Assembly: GCA_963713975.1 (NCBI GenBank)
Contig: OY970218.1
Location: 992,001-1,056,000, forward strand
Direction of reading: 5' to 3'
DNA: 64,000 nt
Origin: an uncultured Chloroflexia bacterium
GTDB lineage: Bacteria; Chloroflexota; Limnocylindria; Limnocylindrales; CSP1-4
Numbering within the stretch: the first letter of the stretch is position 1; each line of letters starts with the position of its first letter. Positions 1,216 to 64,000 of the stretch are shown here, in pieces. A program made the position numbers and the translations under genes. The notes under the pieces were generated by a model, which saw only the letters and a list, made by a program, of their open reading frames with translations, did no database searches and was not told the DNA's origin.

Positions 1216-3483
1216 ATGAGCTTCGACAGTCTCGGCCGCTTCGCCGTCCGCCGCCGGTGGTGGATCGTGACCGCGTGGGCCATCCTCATCCTCGTCGCGC
1301 TGCCGCTTGCGCCCCAGGCCCCCGGGGCCCTGTCTGCCGGCGGCTTCATCCTCGACGACCTCGAGTCGGCCCGGGCGAAGCAGCTCCTGTCCGAGGAGCT
1401 GGGCCTCGAGCCGTCCGCGTTCGTGCTGGTCTACACGTCCGACACGCTCACCGCGGGAACGCCCGAGTGGCTGGCGGCGGTGCGCGCCGCAACCGTGGAT
1501 GTCGCCACGGCACCGCATGTGACCCGGGTCCTGTCGCACGTCCTCGCCCCGCGCCAGGTCTCGGCCGGCGGTCACACGGCGTACGACATCGTCTTCCTGG
1601 ACTTGCCGCCGGACGATTCGCCCGATGCCATCCCGCCGGTGGCCGCCGCCCTCCGGGACGTGCCCGGGCTCACCGTCCGCATCGGCGGCGGCCCCGCGTT
1701 CTACGGTGACGTCCAGGCCGTCACCGAGACCGACCTGCGGCGCAGCGAGCTGATCTCCCTGCCGCTTGCGGCCCTCGCCCTTGTCCTGGTGTTCGGGAGC
1801 ATGGTCGCCGCGGGGGTGCCGCTCGCGGTGGGCGGGGCGGCGGTGCTCGTGGCCCTGGCCGGGATCTTCATCGTCGCCTCGTTCGTTCCCATGAGCATCT
1901 TCGTGCTCAACCTGGCCACGCTCCTCGGGCTGGGTTTGGGCGTGGACTACTCGCTCCTGATGACCAGCCGGTTCCGCGAGGAGCTGGCCAGGCGCGAGGG
2001 GCCGGACCGGGTCGGGGAGGCCGTGCGGATCACCGTCGCCACGGCCGGCCGGGCGGTCTTCTTCTCGGCGCTCACGGTCCTGCTCGGCCTGCTTGGCCTG
2101 GTCCTGTTCGAGTTCATGATCCTGCGCTCGGTCGGCATCGCCGGGGCCATGGTCGTCGGGCTGGCCGGTGCCGCGGCGCTGACCCTCCTGCCGGCGATCC
2201 TGGCCATCATCGGGACACGGATCGACGCCCTCGGCGTCCGCAAGGTGACCGTGGAGCCGGGATCCGACGGCCCGTGGGCGCGCCTGGCCCGCCGCGTCAT
2301 GCGTCACCCGGTGGCGGTCCTCATCCCTACCCTGACGCTGCTGATCGTGCTCGGACTCCCCTTCCTCAGCGTGCGCTTCAACGCACCGGACGCGACGATC
2401 CTGCCGCAGTCGGTGCCGTCACGGGAGACGTACGACATCCTCGCGAGCGAGTTCGGCGAGGGGGAGTTCGCTCCCCTGTTCGTCGCGATCCGGACCACCG
2501 GTGACGCGACGGGCCCCGGGAACGTGGCCGCGCTCTACGACTACTCGCGCCGGCTGGCCGCCGACCCCCGCGTCACCCGCGTGGCCGGGCTGGTGGACGT
2601 GGATCCGCGGATCACCCGGGAGCAGTACCAGCTCCTCTACGGGTCCGCGGGTGGGCCGCCGGACCGGTTCGTGACCGCCTCGCTCACCTCGACCACCCGT
2701 GGCGACCTCACCGTGTTCACGATCACGACCCCGTTCGGGCCGAACAACGAGGAGGCGCGGGCACTCGTCCGCGAGCTGCGGGCATCAACGGGCCCGCTCG
2801 CCGCGCCGGCGGGTGCCTCCATCATGGTCGGCGGCGGCGCCGCCGACGTCGATGACGTCGTCTCACGCGTCTGGTCCGACTTCCCACGCACCGCGGCGTT
2901 CATCGTGGTGACCACGTTCCTGGTCCTGTTCGTCCTGCTCCGGTCCGTCGTCCTGCCGGTCAAGGCGCTGGTGATGAACACCCTGTCGATCGTCGCCAGC
3001 TTCGGCGCGCTGGTCTGGATCTTCCAGGAGGGCAACCTCTCGGCACTGCTCGGGTTCCAGCCCCTGGGCTTCGTAGAGACCACCCTGCCCGTGATCCTGT
3101 TCTGCGTCCTGTTCGGGCTGTCCATGGACTACGAGGTGTTCCTGCTGTCGCGCATGAAGGAGGCCTGGGACCGGACCGGGGACAACACCGAGGCGGTCGC
3201 CCGTGGCCTGGAGCGCAGCGGGCGGATCGTGAGCTCGGCTGCGCTGATCGTCGTGGTCGTCGCGGGCTCGTTCGCGTTCGCCGACATCGTGCTCATCAAG
3301 GCGCTGGGTCTGGGCGTCGCCATCGCCGTGACGCTGGACGCGACCATCGTCCGTGCGCTGCTCGTCCCCGCGACGATGCGCCTCCTTGGCCGCTGGAACT
3401 GGTGGGTTCCCCGGCGCCTGGATCGTGCCCTGCAGGGCGTCCTGCCGCGCACGGAGGCCGAGGTGGAGGCCAGCGTCCGATGA
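1216..3483 (+). CDS. MMPL/RND family transporter
   Basis: Two TM repeats with GLGVDYSL and FGLSMDYEVFL motifs. Confidence 0.92.
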   Translation: MSFDSLGRFAVRRRWWIVTAWAILILVALPLAPQAPGALSAGGFILDDLESARAKQLLSEELGLEPSAFVLVYTSDTLTAGTPEWLAAVRAATVDVATAPHVTRVLSHVLAPRQVSAGGHTAYDIVFLDLPPDDSPDAIPPVAAALRDVPGLTVRIGGGPAFYGDVQAVTETDLRRSELISLPLAALALVLVFGSMVAAGVPLAVGGAAVLVALAGIFIVASFVPMSIFVLNLATLLGLGLGVDYSLLMTSRFREELARREGPDRVGEAVRITVATAGRAVFFSALTVLLGLLGLVLFEFMILRSVGIAGAMVVGLAGAAALTLLPAILAIIGTRIDALGVRKVTVEPGSDGPWARLARRVMRHPVAVLIPTLTLLIVLGLPFLSVRFNAPDATILPQSVPSRETYDILASEFGEGEFAPLFVAIRTTGDATGPGNVAALYDYSRRLAADPRVTRVAGLVDVDPRITREQYQLLYGSAGGPPDRFVTASLTSTTRGDLTVFTITTPFGPNNEEARALVRELRASTGPLAAPAGASIMVGGGAADVDDVVSRVWSDFPRTAAFIVVTTFLVLFVLLRSVVLPVKALVMNTLSIVASFGALVWIFQEGNLSALLGFQPLGFVETTLPVILFCVLFGLSMDYEVFLLSRMKEAWDRTGDNTEAVARGLERSGRIVSSAALIVVVVAGSFAFADIVLIKALGLGVAIAVTLDATIVRALLVPATMRLLGRWNWWVPRRLDRALQGVLPRTEAEVEASVR

Positions 3484-4649
3484 GCCGCCACGTCCTGCTG
3501 CTGCTCGCGCTCATCGCCGTGGTCGTCGCGGCATGCGGTGGTCCCGTGCTCGCCAATCCGCCGGCCGCGCGTCCCGCCGCGATCCCGGAGGCCTCCGTGA
3601 CCCCGGCGCCGCCCGATCCCCGGCCGGTGATCCTGCCCCGCGACGACGGGCCCCACGATCGCCTGACCGAGTGGTGGTACTACACGGGGCACCTCCGGGC
3701 AGAGGATGGCAGCCGGTTCGGCTTCGAGTACGTCGTCTTCCGTGCCGAGCGAGGAAGCTTCCCGGTGACGTGGGCGTCGCACCTCGCGATCACCGACGAA
3801 ACCGGCGGCCGGTTCCACTACGCCCAGCGCGCCGAGATCGGCTCCCAGGCCGACAGGTCACCACGTGAGGACGGCGTCCCGACCGGCTTCGCGCTCGCCG
3901 TGGGTGGCCTCAACCCCCAGGAGCCCGCAACGCTATCGGGCGCGCCATGGGTCATGGCCGGGAGCGGCGGCTCGGACAAGCTGAAGGCGGCCGCGACCGG
4001 CACCGAGGTGGCGGGGGATCGGGTCTCCGGCTTCGGGCTCGAGCTGGCGCTTGCCCAGCGCAAGCCACCCGTCTTCCACGATGGCGACGGCTACGTCGAC
4101 TTCGGGCCCGCGGGCGGCTCCTACTACTACTCGCGGACGGCGATGGACGCGACGGGGACGATCGCTCTCGGCGACCGCGTGCTGGCAGTGACGGGCGACG
4201 CCTGGTTCGATCACCAGTGGGGCGACTTCATCTCGGTCGGCGCGGGCGGCTGGGACTGGTTCGCGATCAACCTGGACGACGGGACGGACGTCACCCTGTC
4301 CCTGGTTCGGGCCGCAGACGGCAGCTACCCCCTGGTCTACGGGACGCTCGTGGATGCCGACGGGGGGACGAGCCACCTGGGGCCGGGCGACTTCACGGTG
4401 GAGGTGACCGGCGACTGGACCAGCCCGGCCACGGGTGCCGTCTACCCGGCAGCCTGGACGTTGACCCTCCCCGGCGAGGACCTGGAGATCCGGCTCGAAC
4501 CCACCGTGTCCCGCCAGGAGCTGGACACGCGTGCCACGACGGGCGTCACCTACTGGGAGGGTTCCCAGCGTGTCAGCGCGTCGCGGGCAGGCCGGGCGCT
4601 TGCCGGCGAGGGCTACGTCGAGCTCACGGGGTACGCCCCCGAACGCTGA
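3480..4649 (+). CDS. AttH/CrtC-like lipocalin-fold lipoprotein
   Basis: Lipobox VAAC; EWWYYTG, SYYYS, WFDHQW, GWDWF, YWEG and GYVELTGY motifs; ATGA overlap with the MMPL gene. Confidence 0.85.
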   Translation: MSRHVLLLLALIAVVVAACGGPVLANPPAARPAAIPEASVTPAPPDPRPVILPRDDGPHDRLTEWWYYTGHLRAEDGSRFGFEYVVFRAERGSFPVTWASHLAITDETGGRFHYAQRAEIGSQADRSPREDGVPTGFALAVGGLNPQEPATLSGAPWVMAGSGGSDKLKAAATGTEVAGDRVSGFGLELALAQRKPPVFHDGDGYVDFGPAGGSYYYSRTAMDATGTIALGDRVLAVTGDAWFDHQWGDFISVGAGGWDWFAINLDDGTDVTLSLVRAADGSYPLVYGTLVDADGGTSHLGPGDFTVEVTGDWTSPATGAVYPAAWTLTLPGEDLEIRLEPTVSRQELDTRATTGVTYWEGSQRVSASRAGRALAGEGYVELTGYAPER

Positions 4650-4653
4650 AGCG

Positions 4654-5088
4654 TCAGGTGCGCCTGAGTGCCAGGCCTGCCGTCACCACGGCCACGACAA
4701 TCGAGATCGCGAAGGCCACGCACCACAGGCAAATCGCGTGGATCACGAACAGCTCCAGATACGTCAGGTAGGCGGCGAACAGCGTGGAGAGCAGCAGCAG
4801 GCCATAGGCGGCGAGCAGCGCTCGTCGGTCGGACCTGAGCCACCACAGGACGGAGCAGACGACGAGCACGAGCGACATCCCGACGCCCAGGAACGCGACC
4901 GGGATCCCGAGGATCAACGCGTACTCCGACACGGCCACGGTCTCGCAGCCCTTGCTCGGGCCGCACGCCGGTGCCTCGCCGAGGATCCGCACGACCGCCA
5001 GGTAGCCGGCGATCACGAGGCCCGCCAGCGTGGCCAGCACGAGGGGCAGTCCCAGCGGGCCACGCGGGGGGCGTTCGATGACCGCCAC
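4654..5088 (-). CDS. Vitamin K epoxide reductase (VKOR) family protein
   Basis: C-x5-C loop pair and CLWC in the TM region; next to DsbA. Confidence 0.9.
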   Translation of the reverse strand: MAVIERPPRGPLGLPLVLATLAGLVIAGYLAVVRILGEAPACGPSKGCETVAVSEYALILGIPVAFLGVGMSLVLVVCSVLWWLRSDRRALLAAYGLLLLSTLFAAYLTYLELFVIHAICLWCVAFAISIVVAVVTAGLALRRT

Positions 5089-5093
5089 CGGGA

Positions 5094-5939
5094 TCAGGGG
5101 TTGGTGCTCGGCGAGGCCGACGGCGCCCCACCGGCTTTGGCCTGCTCGGCCTCGATCAGGGCGCCCAGCTCGGCGGCGCTCTTGAGGCCCACGATCAACT
5201 CCCCGCCGTTGAGGCGGAACGTCGGCGTTGAGTTGATCCCAATGCCGAGCGCGTCAGTGGTCGATGCCGTGACATGGGCCAGCGCCGCATCGGAGTCCTG
5301 GCAGGCGCTGAACGCGCCCTCCTCGACGCCCGCGGCAACCGCGATCTGGGTCACGCGCTCACGGTTGAAGCCGCCCTGGTTCTCGCCATCCTGGTTGTTG
5401 TAGATCCAGTGGGCGTACGGCCAGTAGACACCCTGCTCGTTTGCGCAGTAGGCGCCCGTCGCCGTGAGCTTGGACTCGTCCTCGGCACCGCCGGTGCCCA
5501 GGAAGGCGATGTCGTTGTGCACGATACGCAGCACCCCGGCATTGACGTACTTGTTGACCAGCGAGGGCTCGACCTCCAGGGAGTACCGGGCGCAGACCGG
5601 GCACTGGTAGTCCTCGTAGACCTCCATGACGACGGGCGCGGACGAGGATCCGATGGTGGTGCCGTCGAGGATCGCTGCCTGGTAGGCGAAGCCGGGGTCC
5701 TTGAGCGTTCCGACGGTGGTCCTGTTGCCCAGCTGGCCGACAGCCACGATTGCGACGAGCACCACGCCGATCGCGATCGCCGCGATCGTCATGTTGCGGG
5801 CGTTGATGAACGATGAGCCGCCACCCCCGGCGTCGCTGCGCGTGCGTCGTTCGTCCCGCGCTGTCTCGAAGCGGTCGCGGCGCTCCGCGGCGCGACGGTC
5901 CCGGCGGGTGGTCGGGGTGGTGGGCTGCTTGCCGCTCAG
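5094..5939 (-). CDS. DsbA-family thioredoxin-domain protein
   Basis: EDYQCPVC active site and cis-Pro STPTF; probable CTG start at 5939 behind GGAGG (alternative ATG at 5792). Confidence 0.88.
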   Translation of the reverse strand: MSGKQPTTPTTRRDRRAAERRDRFETARDERRTRSDAGGGGSSFINARNMTIAAIAIGVVLVAIVAVGQLGNRTTVGTLKDPGFAYQAAILDGTTIGSSSAPVVMEVYEDYQCPVCARYSLEVEPSLVNKYVNAGVLRIVHNDIAFLGTGGAEDESKLTATGAYCANEQGVYWPYAHWIYNNQDGENQGGFNRERVTQIAVAAGVEEGAFSACQDSDAALAHVTASTTDALGIGINSTPTFRLNGGELIVGLKSAAELGALIEAEQAKAGGAPSASPSTNP

Positions 5940-53494: not shown

Positions 53495-54880
53495 ATGTCC
53501 CCCGATCCCACACCCGCCGGGGAGCCCGCCGACACGACCCCGGTCGAGCCCGTGCCCGAGCCCGCTCCTGTGCCGACCCTTCTCGCCGAAGGAGGCGCCT
53601 CCCCCACGCCATCACGTCCGGGCCGGCGCACCGGCGTCGCGATCGTGGCCGGCGCCATCATCGCCGTGCTGGCGGGCGGCGCCCTGTTCTTCTCCGGCCT
53701 GACCCTTGGCCGCCAGGCGGCGCTCACGCCGGGCACCCCGGTGAGCGAGGCGGAGGCGTTCCAGCCGTTCTGGGACACCTACCGGGCCGTGACCGAGCGC
53801 TACGCCGGCGGCGAGGTGGACCGCAAGGCGGTGATCGAGGGCGCGATCAAGGGCATGATCGACGCCCTCGGCGATCCGTATTCCCGCTATCTCACGTCCG
53901 ACGAGTTCAAGGCCAGCCTGGAGGGGATCTCCGGGGAGTTCACGGGGATCGGGGCAACCATCGGGACCGTGGACGCCACCGGCGCCACGTCATCCTGCAC
54001 GGACCTGTCCCCTGACTGCCGGATGGTCATCGTGGCCCCGATCAAGGGCTCGCCCGCGGACAAGGCCGGCCTGCGCCCGGGCGACGCGATCACGGCGATC
54101 GACGGCGTGACCGTGGACGGCCAGCCCCTGGACGAGGCCCGGATGAAGGTCCGCGGCCCCAAGGGGGTACCGGTGGTGCTCACGATCGAGCGCGACGGCG
54201 CGACGCCCATCCAGATCGAGGTGGTGCGGGACGTGATCGTCACGCCGGATGTCGAGACCCGGGACCTCGCTGACGGAACGGTTGGCTACATCCGGCTGTC
54301 CGGCTTCTCCGATCACGGTGCAGAGGAGTTCGACCAGGCGGTCGTCGGCAACGTCAAGGCCGGGCGGACGAAGCTGATCCTGGACCTGCGCGGCAACCCG
54401 GGCGGGTTCGTGACCGCGGCCCGCGACATCGCGGGCCAGTTCCTGGCCGACGGCACGATCTTCTGGCAGGAGGACGCGGACGGGAACCTGGTCCAGACGG
54501 TCGCGACGCCTGGTGGTGCGGCCACCGACCCGGCGATTCGGCTGGCGGTGCTCGTCGACGGCGGGACGGCATCGGCGTCGGAGATCGTGGCCAGTGCCCT
54601 CCAGGACCGCGGGCGTGCGGTGCTGGTCGGGTCCACGACGTTTGGCAAGGGCACCGTCCAGCAGTGGACCCAGCTCGAAGACGACACCGGCGGCTTCCGG
54701 CTCACGATCGCCAAGTGGCTGACGCCCGACAAGACCTGGATCCACGGCAAGGGGATCACCCCGGACGTCGTCGTGGACGCCCAGCCGGCGAAGCCCGGCG
54801 ACGACCCGGTCCTGGACGCCGCGCTCGAGAAGCTGGGCGCTGCGACGACCGGCGCCTCGGGCCCCCGCGCGACGGCCTGA
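53495..54880 (+). CDS. S41 carboxyl-terminal processing protease with PDZ domain
   Basis: DPYS, PDZ, LDLRGNPGG, TASASE, FGKG. Confidence 0.92.
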   Translation: MSPDPTPAGEPADTTPVEPVPEPAPVPTLLAEGGASPTPSRPGRRTGVAIVAGAIIAVLAGGALFFSGLTLGRQAALTPGTPVSEAEAFQPFWDTYRAVTERYAGGEVDRKAVIEGAIKGMIDALGDPYSRYLTSDEFKASLEGISGEFTGIGATIGTVDATGATSSCTDLSPDCRMVIVAPIKGSPADKAGLRPGDAITAIDGVTVDGQPLDEARMKVRGPKGVPVVLTIERDGATPIQIEVVRDVIVTPDVETRDLADGTVGYIRLSGFSDHGAEEFDQAVVGNVKAGRTKLILDLRGNPGGFVTAARDIAGQFLADGTIFWQEDADGNLVQTVATPGGAATDPAIRLAVLVDGGTASASEIVASALQDRGRAVLVGSTTFGKGTVQQWTQLEDDTGGFRLTIAKWLTPDKTWIHGKGITPDVVVDAQPAKPGDDPVLDAALEKLGAATTGASGPRATA

Positions 54881-54924
54881 GCGCGAACTCGCCTGCGTCC
54901 GAGGTGGCCTCGGCAACTCGGTGC

Positions 54925-54953
54925 TTGCGCGGCTCCGCAGGATCGGGTACGGT
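54925..54953 (+). promoter_or_regulatory. Sigma70-like promoter of the small transcript
   Basis: TTGCGC-17 bp-TACGGT. Confidence 0.5.
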
Positions 54954-54982
54954 CGCTTGCGAACGAAAGGAGGTGATGTGCA

Positions 54983-55033
54983 GTGATCGACAGTAGTAGT
55001 TGCTGCACCACCTCGTTGGAGATCGCCGCCTAG
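54983..55033 (+). CDS. Candidate 16-aa micro-ORF MIDSSSCCTTSLEIAA
   Basis: Preceded by AAAGGAGGTGAT at 54966-54977; GTG...TAG; flanked by a promoter and a terminator hairpin. Confidence 0.55.
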   Translation: MIDSSSCCTTSLEIAA

Positions 55034-55062
55034 TTGCGATCCCGACGGGTGGTCGGTAGCAA

Positions 55063-55096
55063 ATGAACGCCGGTCCGGCAACGGGCCGGCGTTCGT
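55063..55096 (+). terminator. Hairpin with GCAA tetraloop
   Basis: ATGAACGCCGGTCCG-GCAA-CGGGCCGGCGTTCGT, 15-bp stem with G-U pairs. Confidence 0.7.
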
Positions 55097-55172
55097 GCGT
55101 CCGGGCCACGGGGTCGCGCGTGCGACACTTGCGGCCATTCCCGGCAGCCGTTTCCTCGAGAGGAGTTCCGCC

Positions 55173-55631
55173 ATGGGCGACACGATCGCCCAGAACCGAC
55201 GAGCACACCACGACTACAGCATCGAGGACACCTTCGAGGCTGGCATCGTGCTGCGTGGCACCGAGATCAAGAGCATCCGCGACCACAAGGTGAGCCTCGC
55301 GGATGCCTACGCGCGCATCGAGCGCAACGAGGCCTGGATCATCGGTCTCCATATCGCTCCCTGGGGCACGGCAGACGTCCGCTTCAACCACGAGCCCAAG
55401 CGCGCCCGGAAACTGCTGCTGCACCGCCGCGAGATCGACGAGCTGCTGGGCAAGAGCAAGGCCAAGGGCCTGACGATCGTCCCGCTCCGGATCTACCTGT
55501 CGCGGGGCCGGGCCAAGGTGGAGCTGGGACTCGCCCGTGGCAAGCAGACCTGGGACCGGCGGCGCGAGATCGCGGAGCGCGATGCGAAGCGGGACATGGC
55601 GCGCCAGGTCGCCGAAGCGCGCAAACGCTAG
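55173..55631 (+). CDS. smpB: SsrA-binding protein
   Basis: IAQNRRAHHDY, EAGIVLRGTEIKS, RKLLLHRREI, GKQTWDRR. Confidence 0.96.
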   Translation: MGDTIAQNRRAHHDYSIEDTFEAGIVLRGTEIKSIRDHKVSLADAYARIERNEAWIIGLHIAPWGTADVRFNHEPKRARKLLLHRREIDELLGKSKAKGLTIVPLRIYLSRGRAKVELGLARGKQTWDRRREIAERDAKRDMARQVAEARKR

Positions 55632-55650
55632 CGGGACACGAGGGTCAGGG

Positions 55651-56703
55651 ATGCGGCTCGCACGAATGCTCCAGGCAGTGGACCTGCACGCGGCAGGGGA
55701 ACCCGGTCGGGTCATCGTCGGCGGTGTGCTGGACGTCCCCGGCGCGACGATGCTCGAGAAGGCGCGCCACCTGGAGCAGCACGGTGACGGCCTGCGCCGC
55801 CTGATGCTCCGCGAGCCCCGCGGCTACCCGGCCCTGTGCGCGAACCTGATCCTGCCACCCACCCACCCCGATGCCGATGCCGGGTACGTGATCATGGAGC
55901 ACGTCGAGTACCCGGGCATGTCCGGGACCAACACGATCTGCGTGGCCACCGCGCTGCTCGAGACCGGTATGCTGCCGATGACGGAGCCGGTGACCGAGAT
56001 CGTGCTCGAGGCACCGGCGGGCCTGATACGGATCCGCGCGACCTGTGCCGACGGCAAGGTCACCGGAGTGACCTTCCGCAACGTGCCGGCCTTTGCGACG
56101 CATCTCGACAGGCCCGTCGAGGTCCCGCAGCTGGGCACTGTCGTGGTGGACGTCGCCTATGGCGGCATGTTCTACGTCATCGCAGACGCCGTGGCGCTGG
56201 GGTTCAGCCTGGTGCCCGACGAGGGGCGCGACATCACGCGCGTGACAGAGATGATCAAGGCCGCCGCCGCCGAGCAGCTGCCGGTCGTCCACCCGGACCA
56301 GCCAGGGTTTGCGGGCATCACCATCGGTCAGCTGTCCGGTCCGCCCCACGATCCGCGCAACTCCTGGCGGAACGTGACCACGGTGTCCACCGGGACGCTC
56401 GACTGGTCGAAGCCGTCGACGTGGACCGGCGTCATCGACCGGTCTCCGTGCGGGACCGGCACCTGCGCCAAGATGGCCGTCCTCCATGCCAGGGAACAGC
56501 TGGGGCTGGGCGAGGACTTCCGTCACGAGGGGATCCTCGGGACGGTGTTCACGGGCCGGTTGACCGAGGAGGTGCGCGTGGGTGAGCGGACGGCTGTCGT
56601 GCCCACGATCAGCGGGACGGCGTGGATCACCGGCTTCGCGAGCTACGTGGTCGACCCCACGGACCCGTTCCCGGAGGGCTACACGGTCGGGGACATCTGG
56701 TAG
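55651..56703 (+). CDS. Proline racemase superfamily enzyme (Ser/Cys type)
   Basis: DLHAAGEPGR, EPRG, MSGTN, DRSPCGTGT. Confidence 0.9.
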   Translation: MRLARMLQAVDLHAAGEPGRVIVGGVLDVPGATMLEKARHLEQHGDGLRRLMLREPRGYPALCANLILPPTHPDADAGYVIMEHVEYPGMSGTNTICVATALLETGMLPMTEPVTEIVLEAPAGLIRIRATCADGKVTGVTFRNVPAFATHLDRPVEVPQLGTVVVDVAYGGMFYVIADAVALGFSLVPDEGRDITRVTEMIKAAAAEQLPVVHPDQPGFAGITIGQLSGPPHDPRNSWRNVTTVSTGTLDWSKPSTWTGVIDRSPCGTGTCAKMAVLHAREQLGLGEDFRHEGILGTVFTGRLTEEVRVGERTAVVPTISGTAWITGFASYVVDPTDPFPEGYTVGDIW

Positions 56704-60475: not shown

Positions 60476-61432
60476 TCAGCTCCCGGCCGGTTCGATGCGC
60501 GGCACGCCGGAGCGCGCCAGGCGCTCCTCGAACCGCCTGGCGGCGAGGTCCAGTTTGTCCAGGTGCTCGGCGAGCCTGCGGCGTGCATCCTCGGCGGTCG
60601 CGTCCAGGCCGGAGAGCTCGAACACGCCCCAGAACTTGAGGATCGGCAGCAGCACCTCGTCGCGATGCACCCGCAGGTCGTAGATGCCGGCCTTGGCGAT
60701 GTCCGCGGCCTTGCGCAGGAAGTTCTGGATCCCGGCGCCCGGCATCTCGAACTTGAGGATCTCGTCCACGATGGCCCGTACGGCCGCGGAGGGCTCGATC
60801 GCGATGGCCGCCTTGAGGATGTCCCGGTAGAACACCATGTGCATGTTCTCGTCGGCGGCGATGCGGACCATGATCCGGTCCGCTACCGGGTCCTCGGAGT
60901 AGCGCCCGGTGTTGCGGTGCGAGATCCGGGTCGCCAGCTCCTGGAAGGCCACGTACGCGAGCCCGTGGAGGGTGTCGGGCATGTCGTGGTCGTAGCCCTT
61001 CTGGAGCTGCGCCATGCGACCGCGCTCGAGGAGCGTGGGGTCGAAGTTGCGCGTCACCACCAGGTAGTCCCGCAGCACGATTGCGTGGCGGCCCTCCTCG
61101 GCCGTCCAGCGGCCCACCCAGTTGAGCCACGCGCCGTCACCCTTGCCGAACATCCCGTGGATGAGCCGGTGGTAGCTGGGCAGGTTGTCCTCGGTCAGCA
61201 GGCCGACCTCGAACGCCGTCTGGGCGACGCCCGTCAGCCGTGGCTGGTCCGGGGTCCATGGCTCCTTGTCGAAGTCCCGGCCCAGGCGATACGGGATGAA
61301 GTCGTGCGGGAACCACTCCTGGGACACCTTGAGATGGCGGTCCAGCAGCCGTCCGGCCTCCGGCTCCAGCTCCTCGAGCAGGCGGCGATCGAGGGCGGGG
61401 ACCTCCACGGGGGCAACGGGATCGTCGGACAT
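60476..61432 (-). CDS. Acyl-ACP desaturase (di-iron, DesA-like)
   Basis: TEDNLPSY, WTAEEGRH, FQELAT, DENMH. Confidence 0.92.
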   Translation of the reverse strand: MSDDPVAPVEVPALDRRLLEELEPEAGRLLDRHLKVSQEWFPHDFIPYRLGRDFDKEPWTPDQPRLTGVAQTAFEVGLLTEDNLPSYHRLIHGMFGKGDGAWLNWVGRWTAEEGRHAIVLRDYLVVTRNFDPTLLERGRMAQLQKGYDHDMPDTLHGLAYVAFQELATRISHRNTGRYSEDPVADRIMVRIAADENMHMVFYRDILKAAIAIEPSAAVRAIVDEILKFEMPGAGIQNFLRKAADIAKAGIYDLRVHRDEVLLPILKFWGVFELSGLDATAEDARRRLAEHLDKLDLAARRFEERLARSGVPRIEPAGS

Positions 61433-63930: not shown

Positions 63931-64000
63931 GGGGATGCGTGGTTTCGACAGGGCTTGGCTGCCAGGGAACGCGAGCCGAGGTGCCGTCAGGCCTCGTTAA
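63931..64000 (+). ncRNA. ssrA: tmRNA 5' end (truncated by window edge)
   Basis: GGGGATGCGTGGTTTCGACAGGG matches the tmRNA 5' consensus; TGCTACCAT extended -10 upstream; smpB about 8 kb away. Confidence 0.85.

Follow-up and report, generated by a model that had tools for sequence, protein, structure and literature searches.

A conserved, probably translated leader RNA of smpB with an extended Shine-Dalgarno sequence in the Limnocylindria

The 293-nt gap between ctp (53495-54880) and smpB (55173-55631) in the genome of an uncultured Chloroflexia bacterium (contig OY970218.1) is the site of an element that we hold, with high confidence, to be a conserved and translated leader RNA of smpB. The window analysed is a stretch of 64,000 nt from this genome (G000; 3,624,741 bp); window positions are used throughout, and the parts of the element lie on the + strand, as do the two genes that flank it. 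The element combines a promoter, a Shine-Dalgarno (SD) sequence of unusual length close to the predicted 5′ end, a short open reading frame (ORF; here micro-ORF) and a terminal hairpin.

Anatomy and conservation of the leader

An initial annotation, made from the letters of the window, had already named most of these parts. Its promoter, TTGCGC-17-TACGGT, is present at 54925-54953 (−35 at 54925-54930, a 17-nt spacer, −10 at 54948-54953). A simple sigma-70 scan with an E. coli-type consensus did not report this promoter; both hexamers are conserved in relatives, in the genus and across the order at the same places, and with the same spacing in the sister family as well. Transcription of the leader would start at ~54958-54962, ~5 nt before GAAAGGAGG. 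A hairpin, CCGAGG-UGG-CCUCGG, lies before this promoter at 54900-54914 (+), 20 nt past the ctp stop codon, and may be the end of the ctp transcript.

A few nucleotides from the predicted 5′ end stands the extended SD sequence GAAAGGAGGTGAT (54965-54977). The annotation had counted a 12-nt exact complement of the 16S 3′ end; the 12-mer AAAGGAGGTGAT at 54966-54977 is preceded by a G that lengthens the complement to 13 nt, and since the ribosomal DNA (rDNA) strand reads AGAAAGGAGGTGATCCAGCC, these 13 nt are complementary to the genome's own 16S tail. The 12-mer occurs twice in the genome, once in the element and once as the complement of the 16S 3′ end. The extended SD is invariant in 20 of 20 genus sequences. 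The micro-ORF (54983-55033), likewise found as annotated, begins with GTG at 54983, runs for 16 codons encoding MIDSSSCCTTSLEIAA, and ends with TAG at 55031-55033. An alternative frame from ATG 54976 (MCSDRQ*) was rejected, its length and stop varying in relatives when inspected by eye.

The 15-bp GNRA-capped stem of the annotation is a terminator-like hairpin with a GCAA loop at 55063-55096, which with its conserved tail GUGCGUCC extends to 55102; GTGCGTCC stands directly 3′ of the stem. The hairpin is at the same place across the order. It has no U run in this species or genus, and a simple terminator consensus scan reported no + strand terminator here; U-rich tails follow the terminal hairpin in lower-GC relatives, namely the small-genome family and the sister family. 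The fold energy of the 143-nt RNA is −76.2 kcal/mol (z = −7.0 against 200 dinucleotide shuffles).

BLAST recovered a stretch of 176 nt at 83-96% identity from 23 of the 24 other genus genomes, far more than chance would allow. With a covariance model trained on 20 sequences of the genus, one full-length copy was obtained in 144/151 genomes of the order (Candidatus Limnocylindria, Chloroflexota), representing 28/28 genera; the seven genomes that gave no match to this model are 61-90% complete. The element is kept in 35/42 genomes of a family with ~1.1-Mb genomes (f2). Covariance-model matches across the phylum came from 38/151 genomes, among them 10/10 of the sister family, which belongs to the same class.

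Gene order around the element is conserved to a similar degree, as the annotation had proposed to check. Of 39 order loci, 38 have ctp upstream and 38 have smpB downstream in the same orientation, the one miss being a contig end; the arrangement ctp-[element]-smpB recurs in 8/8 sister-family loci, and in 18 of the 19 named Limnocylindria-type contigs among the matches listed from the motif scan described below, the remaining contig being cut. The distance from element to smpB is 7-30 nt at L041, L042, L062, L038, L043, L068, L056, L046, L037, L044 and L040, counting only loci where the listed start gives an SmpB-like N-terminus. A gap this short, ~9-30 nt in several genera, hardly leaves room for a separate smpB promoter, so that there the element would be the 5′ leader of smpB; and from the same spacing, smpB transcription would have to read through the hairpin. 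Synteny and short gap thus bear out the annotation's idea of a micro-mRNA with an exceptional SD that serves as a leader before smpB.

Sequencing runs were also consulted. The locus itself is in none of them: of the words sampled from window 54700-55700 at most 15% occur in any one run, and shares of 0.05-0.15 are about what the conserved element alone, coming from relatives, would give. Contigs of four RNA libraries, from relatives, cover the element, and two of them bridge into smpB (X15 record 1, 54946-55204; X17 record 11, 54961-55450). RNA-library contigs extend upstream of the inferred start, and for this reason they show no start, no end and no transcription as such; the bridging contigs, DNA carry-over being possible, are compatible with co-transcription of element and smpB.

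The micro-ORF and the alternative folds

Translation was judged from 92 distinct Limnocylindria-type sequences encoding 74 distinct peptides, which as relatives are not independent; the pattern of starts, stops and indels read from them nevertheless requires several separate indel and codon-swap events. The frame is open at the same place in 92/92 and has 13-17 codons. Start codons are GTG (87), ATG (4) and TTG (1), and a stop codon is conserved in all 92 as TAG (61), TAA (20) or TGA (11). From the start codon to a CC[AG]CC motif the distance is 19, 22, 25 or 28 nt, the frame being kept in 91/91 scorable sequences. A MAFFT alignment of 25 sequences has ORF gaps that are all multiples of 3, with one exception: in L065 a single nucleotide is inserted at the start codon, so that GTG reads TTG, and the frame beyond it is unchanged. 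Such turnover of start and stop codons, together with frame-preserving indels, makes it very probable that the micro-ORF is translated.

The spacing of SD elements around the frame is equally regular. GGAGG is separated from the start codon by 9 nt in 90/92 sequences. Inside the ORF a second SD core, GGAG or GAGG, ends 8-9 nt before the stop codon in 89/92; in the window it is GGAG at 55018-55021, 9 nt before the stop codon. At such a distance a ribosome with the stop codon in its A site could pair its anti-SD again with this core; the spacing may also be a by-product of hairpin geometry.

The peptide itself follows the consensus M-x-[DE]-S-x-x-(x)-C-T-T-S-x-E-[IVM]-x-x. Two ideas of the annotation about it, that its C-terminal -AA resembles the degron of an ssrA tag and that its CC pair adds redox or metal sensing, fail because neither is conserved. 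Only 11 of 74 peptides end in AA, the others ending in AV, VV, GL, TV, GE, VR and 19 further dipeptides, and even within the genus the endings include AA, VV, GA, GL, VL and VA. The CC pair occurs in 21/74, and 4/74 have no Cys at all. In relatives, then, SD, ORF and frame are kept and the terminal AA is not. Selection on peptide and on RNA cannot be separated here, since the conserved letters are encoded by bases that pair or that mimic SD or anti-SD.

The RNA can take two alternative folds. State A (54970-55014) pairs SD and start codon, GAGGUG(AU)GUGCAGUG, with codons 6-11, centred on CUGCAC-CACCUC; these codons contain an anti-SD-like stretch, CUGCACCACCUC, at 55003-55014. Paired cells in state A amount to 93.9%, against at most 55.6% when slid. 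The RNAduplex energy has a median of −21.5 kcal/mol, compared with −13.2 for shuffled ORF bodies, and the duplex is better than all 50 shuffles in 72/95 sequences. A perfect 12-bp state A with a different sequence, GAGGUGAUGCCU:AGGCAUCACCUC, is present in another family of the Chloroflexota.

In state B (54999-55060) the anti-SD-like stretch pairs instead with an SD-like copy that follows the stop codon, GGGUGGU (55047-55053), enclosing an inner hairpin, GAUCGC/GCGAUC (55021-55041), with the stop codon in its loop. State B is both the RNAalifold consensus and the minimum free energy (MFE) structure of the window RNA. The small hairpin annotated at 55034-55062 does exist, and is really the 3′ half of this longer hairpin enclosing the stop codon. 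For state B, 40 diverse sequences have 87.9% of cells paired, compared with 74.5% after shuffling and no more than 50% after sliding, and both partners vary in 29 of 38 pairs (terminator included); these counts lean towards structure because the alignment was fitted to the model. A compensatory change from ACCACC:GGUGGU to ACCGCC:GCGGU is seen in the small-genome family. In the terminator (helix 5) both partners vary in 13/14 pairs, with 96.4% of cells paired.

Six sequences were folded under constraints in four ribosome states each, giving 24 folds. The MFE structure of the free RNA is state A in five of the six, and state B in the window sequence. With a 30S footprint blocked at the start, state B appears in 5/6; for the exception, L052, the script took an AUG 7 nt downstream, which gave an oversized block and shifted footprints and left a truncated inner helix. 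In these models the alternative pairings gate the micro-ORF's own SD.

Relatives in other phyla and links to rescue genes

The 5′ module was sought with the motif GAAAGGAGGTGRTN{1,3}CAGTG in 185,579 species genomes, and at least 120 contigs matched. Since an SD and a GTG are built into the motif, an ORF at its matches is by itself little evidence. Among the matches listed are Limnocylindria, where the peptidase gene and smpB flank the motif, many Alphaproteobacteria, and small numbers of Planctomycetota, Acidobacteriota and other groups. One further match, on a Streptomyces sp. chromosome (L158), places the SD-GTG motif before a 51-codon ORF with many Cys, Ser and Thr residues (...CCWSSILDGCQFFSLTISSCHSCTNTGS), which looks like a modified-peptide precursor unrelated to the element.

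The annotation had asked for a comparison with Rfam, and no family matches the element at curated thresholds; the only gathering-level match in the window is ASdes (RF01781) at 61030-61096 (+), with 45.4 bits against a gathering score of 40. The element's sole Rfam match is RF01867, CC2171, at 25.3 bits (E = 0.0019; gathering score 75), and the CC2171 model run against the whole genome gave no match. Three alphaproteobacterial motif matches that were tested score above the CC2171 threshold. Element and CC2171 have in common the 5′ module CGAAAGGAGGUGAU..CAGUG, a GUG-started short ORF, an internal stretch complementary to the SD region and a terminal hairpin. CC2171 differs in its longer 16S complement (17 nt), in an ORF of 21-27 codons (MSHC...) whose peptide is unrelated, and in its variable neighbours. 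It is an RNA detected by Northern blot in Methylorubrum, with function given as unknown in the accessible part of that report (bioRxiv 10.1101/2022.01.24.477521); for Rfam 15 the accessible text lists one added base pair and nothing more (PMC11701678). A third alphaproteobacterial variant, of the Bradyrhizobium/Afipia group (L093, L127, L139, L145, L153, L163, L172, L178, L184, L191 and L195), has a 14-codon ORF, MSxxKRCHLAGIAR; L145, the one tested, has no Rfam CC2171 match.

The second relative is Ms_IGR-5 (RF02471), an orphan actinobacterial small RNA (sRNA) that is hit by one acidobacterial motif match. Its model (gathering score 45 bits) does not match the element even at E up to 10, and the element is akin to it by anatomy, as read from the sequences, not by model score. 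It has the same 13-nt SD at the 5′ end, GAAAGGAGGUGAU or GGUCC variants, keeps a fixed distance from SD core to stop codon and encloses that codon in a hairpin; it also carries an anti-SD-like stretch and ends in a terminal hairpin. Its own ORF, of 12-14 codons, ends T-R-E-V-A-A-x, where the element's ends C-T-T-S-x-E-[IVM]-x-x. A GAGG core lies 11 nt before the stop codon in 14/14 Actinomycetota, Streptomyces (L218:1501-1722) and 13 others (L220-L248, unpublished genomes left out), and in 3/3 Acidobacteriota. From these sequences the peptide tail and SD core of the Limnocylindria and of Ms_IGR-5 look homologous. One difference is that the anti-SD stretch follows the stop codon in Ms_IGR-5 and lies inside the ORF in the element. 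One divergent upstream gene, common to nine loci, is the only neighbour shared among the Actinomycetota. Ms_IGR-5 was seen by RNA-seq in Streptomyces lividans (PMC8079986), and it is treated as a non-coding sRNA, the accessible portions of two reports mentioning neither a function nor an ORF (PMC8079986, PMC8780764). So far as the accessible texts go, both families are handled as expressed sRNAs of unknown function (bioRxiv 10.1101/2022.01.24.477521, PMC5596092, PMC8079986, PMC8780764).

A similar leader stands before another rescue gene, arfB. At least 24 Rhodobacterales-type loci carry GAAAGGAGGUGAUCCAGUG, a 17-nt 16S complement, followed by an 18-codon ORF with a GUG start (MSRVILERGVGT...), an anti-SD mimic (e.g. 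CCACCUCCU) and a U-tailed terminator. Among the matches listed, arfB follows on the same strand 179-296 nt past the motif in 14 of 24 such loci (L087:1739-1927, L085, L096, L103, L106, L109, L132, L135, L141, L170, L175, L176, L188 and L190); it is 1.0-1.6 kb downstream in three more, and absent from seven, one of which breaks off after 63 nt. Against the ArfB model (cut-off 100) the downstream protein reaches 175 bits. Five arfB leader loci that were tested have no Rfam match at gathering thresholds. In two Bosea genomes (L116, L119) a CC2171 RNA lies ~120 nt before a same-strand RNB/CSD2/S1 protein, RNase R (rnr); at L116 the RNA spans 3017-3191 and the RNase R gene 3314-5629, an arrangement not seen at other CC2171 loci. 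Clustering of the ORFs that flank CC2171-type and Ms_IGR-5-type loci revealed no rescue gene beyond arfB (Rhodobacterales) and rnr (Bosea only). As gene neighbourhoods go, three placements before non-stop rescue genes (smpB, arfB, rnr) are striking.

A link with transfer-messenger RNA (tmRNA) and trans-translation, also part of the initial annotation, finds no such footing. An ordinary tmRNA gene (133.7 bits) lies ~8 kb past smpB at G000:C1:1055931-1056302, its 5′ part being window 63931-64000, and ARAGORN finds no tmRNA in the window, so that a degenerate or minimal tmRNA was rejected as an identity for the element. In L083 and L130 the tmRNA gene is ~0.7-1.2 kb downstream of smpB. RNAduplex pairing between element and tmRNA was not significant in three genomes, where 21, 2 and 45 of 100 shuffles reach the observed energy, full-length duplex folding being a poor tool for such pairing. 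ArfB was not found above cut-off in the genome (no search was made for ArfA), and without ArfB trans-translation may be the only rescue route of this genome. A sub-threshold match to the ArfB model (28.1 bits) at ~50180 (G000:C1:1042180-1042278) falls within a 373-aa open frame that directly precedes ftsE. This match probably reflects the GGQ region of a release factor, prfB for example, and the gene order would then read prfB-ftsE-ftsX-ctp-leader-smpB; ftsE and ftsX do lie upstream of ctp. The flanking genes were assigned by model score: ctp encodes an S41 C-terminal processing peptidase (TIGR00225, 296.8 bits against a cut-off of 218.6), and smpB scores 202.1 bits (NF003843, cut-off 130).

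Possible mechanism, rivals and meaning

We propose, from sequence comparison and at evenly balanced confidence, a ribosome-engaged leader that sets smpB expression. The promoter would make an RNA of ~140 nt whose extreme 5′ end is the 13-nt perfect SD, followed by GUG and the 16-codon micro-ORF. As the SD emerges, a 30S subunit would be caught on it and keep the RNA out of state A; an early complex of 30S with RNA polymerase has been described structurally, as far as the accessible text of that report goes (PMC12820379). State B would free the true SD and place the stop codon in a hairpin loop behind the second SD core. A translating ribosome would then melt state B and may be held at the stop codon. 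Ribosome engagement would in this way decide how the RNA folds, how well its 5′ end is protected, and what becomes of the leader-smpB transcript and how long it survives, with smpB transcription passing the strong terminator hairpin by read-through. The micro-ORF would act by being translated, not through its peptide. That the leader also senses ribosome status is a more doubtful step, possible rather than probable; the level of full-length leader-smpB transcript would then follow ribosome availability or translation status.

Several observations count against this proposal. Its weak point is that the folds do not allow one to derive how read-through would be altered. An antiterminator was sought by constrained folding and by eye and was not found, the terminator staying intact in 24/24 folds, so that a classical attenuation switch is not visible; the 30 nt between stop codon and terminator stem are more than a terminating ribosome could span to block the terminator. 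The terminator was intact too, again with no antiterminator, in 21 folds of seven arfB leaders. Covariation in state A is thin because the 5′ strand does not vary: two-sided changes are seen in 3/14 pairs, and shuffled columns still give 92.8% paired cells against the 93.9% of state A. An smpB promoter may be concealed within the element. Relatives elsewhere mostly stand alone: none of smpB, arfB and rnr lies within 1.5 kb in 27 Actinomycetota Ms_IGR-5 loci, smpB is in the flanks of 0/7 loci of other Chloroflexota families (three with short flanks), and most alphaproteobacterial relatives are standalone with unrelated neighbours. The core function of the family therefore cannot be control of smpB as such. 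The associations with rescue genes were, moreover, noticed post hoc, and most family members have other neighbours.

These standalone relatives speak for a different account, in which the element is an independent tiny gene of the Ms_IGR-5/CC2171 kind, encoding a micro-protein or a dual-function sRNA, and a leaky terminator merely lets smpB be co-transcribed, with no sensing at all. We consider this a serious candidate, if on the unlikely side. The same architecture does occur by itself with strong U-tailed terminators in other Chloroflexota, in Streptomyces and 26 other Actinomycetota loci, and in most Alphaproteobacteria; the constrained folds hold no antiterminator; the peptide tail T-x-E-[VIM]-x-x is common to Chloroflexota, Actinomycetota and Acidobacteriota; and CC2171 and Ms_IGR-5 have been detected as discrete RNAs, according to the accessible parts of two reports (bioRxiv 10.1101/2022.01.24.477521; PMC8079986). 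What speaks for a leader instead is the class-wide fixed position with its short gap, which makes smpB depend on this promoter and terminator, and the two or three independent placements before the rescue genes smpB, arfB and rnr. The peptide is an ambiguous witness, its selection not being separable from that of the RNA; the alphaproteobacterial ORFs encode unrelated peptides, and an NCBIfam scan of 10 related micro-peptides (22-26 aa, the 16-aa window peptide not among them) matched 0 families. An unlikely possibility is a constitutive stabiliser of the STAB-SD type joined to a fixed partial terminator, where a 30S or 70S on the super-SD would shield the RNA from decay that depends on the 5′ end, the hairpin would hold read-through at a low, constant level, and expression would be tuned without sensing. 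STAB-SD offers a precedent, 30S binding to a 5′ SD-like sequence and blocking RNase J1, in the accessible text (PMC4113751). The trait is present here as a 5′-proximal SD-like sequence, a few nucleotides from the predicted 5′ end and complementary over 13 nt to the 16S 3′ end; the genome encodes RNase J (591.9 bits; cut-off 400), and with this enzyme present a ribosome sitting at the leader 5′ end could protect the RNA, and in the folds the terminator is indifferent to ribosome position. STAB-SD of cry3A, however, starts no translation, while the element has a conserved start codon 9 nt after GGAGG and a frame-conserved ORF, and a stabiliser leaves both the conserved anti-SD/SD-copy switch and the SD core before the stop codon unexplained.

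The remaining rivals fare worse. It is very unlikely that the RNA acts in trans as a ribosome sponge or decoy, the annotation's first option, with an abundant terminated transcript holding 30S subunits through the long SD duplex or titrating, through its anti-SD mimics, a factor that binds the 16S tail. The anatomy would be compatible with 30S capture: the 13-nt SD is unique in the genome, the two SD cores are spaced so that a ribosome could sit at the start and another at the stop codon, and anti-SD-like stretches are present in all family members. But the product of one gene copy would have to be extremely abundant to matter among thousands of ribosomes, and a conserved frame speaks for productive translation, not mere binding. 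Poly-Cys leaders in mycobacteria are stalling attenuators, and the Ser, Cys and Thr codons of the window peptide (SSSCCTTS), which is rich in these residues and has a terminator after its ORF, might suggest an amino-acid attenuator of the thr/his type whose ribosomes stall when the tRNAs are uncharged. We think this highly improbable, because the downstream gene is smpB and not a biosynthetic gene, most relatives are without such codon runs (e.g. MSEHSRCTTSQEMAV, MSSSCHATTEAVR), and the constrained folds again give no antiterminator. A mimic of the ssrA tag, the annotation's second option, whose C-terminal -AA would titrate ClpXP or tune trans-translation, can practically be set aside: the peptide ends LEIAA here and the genome's tmRNA tag, by eye, ends ALAA, but the small minority of peptides with that ending, and its variation even within the genus, do not fit.

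Some known systems bear comparison with the element. ermC and trp are leader-ORF attenuators with alternative RNA pairings. Upstream-ORF (uORF) attenuators of the whiB7, ermC and trp type resemble the element in their short leader ORF, in alternative pairings that involve this ORF and in a hairpin terminator, here a putative one, before the gene; the element differs in that it has no antiterminator competing with the terminator, its pairings gate its own SD and not the terminator or the downstream SD, and that SD is extreme. Of the marks of a leader-peptide attenuator, a translated short ORF is indicated by the comparative signature; the strong covarying hairpin, with U-rich tails in relatives and no U run in this genus, is a candidate intrinsic terminator; and an antiterminator exclusive with the terminator was not seen in any of the 24 folds. 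whiB7 riboregulation has been linked to trans-translation in the accessible part of one report (bioRxiv 10.1101/2025.10.10.681568). The self-regulation of arfA-type genes through non-stop transcripts is a different design, for the micro-ORF keeps its conserved stop codon (92/92) 30 nt upstream of the terminator stem, regulation here would fall on smpB and arfB themselves, and nothing points to a non-stop arrangement; brfA is a further self-regulated alternative rescue factor. The element is also unlike tmRNA (ssrA), as ARAGORN finds no tRNA-like domain in the window and -AA is rare among the peptides.

A broader view, which we offer as a rather unlikely conjecture, takes all of these RNAs as one cross-phylum class of super-SD micro-ORFs, from Chloroflexota, Actinomycetota (Ms_IGR-5), Acidobacteriota and Alphaproteobacteria (CC2171) to the Rhodobacterales arfB leader, with the ribosome as the switch ligand and wired in cis to smpB or arfB. 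A 5′ SD of 13-17 nt would compete for free 30S against a built-in mimic of the 16S tail, and the second SD core would hold a ribosome at the stop codon. Wired to smpB and arfB, such a sensor of ribosome availability or termination would give homeostatic control of ribosome rescue.

In kind, the element is something already known, a uORF leader or a member of an orphan sRNA family. What appears to be new is the extreme SD joined to a self-sequestering micro-ORF, the presence of micro-ORFs on Ms_IGR-5-like RNAs, the class-wide wiring to smpB and its counterpart at arfB; full-text searches of the literature (supplements not covered) turned up no account of an attenuator or leader ORF preceding either gene. 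How bacteria set the level of SmpB is, to our knowledge, poorly known, and here an abundant uncultured lineage of soil and freshwater has a class-wide conserved cis element on smpB. Two orphan Rfam families held to be non-coding sRNAs can be reread as RNAs that carry a micro-ORF, conserved and probably translated, behind an SD as strong as an SD can be. The Rhodobacterales include cultivable members, so that their arfB leader makes the idea testable. If it is true, and ribosome engagement is the signal, these leaders would amount to simple RNA gauges of how many ribosomes are available or how much termination capacity there is.

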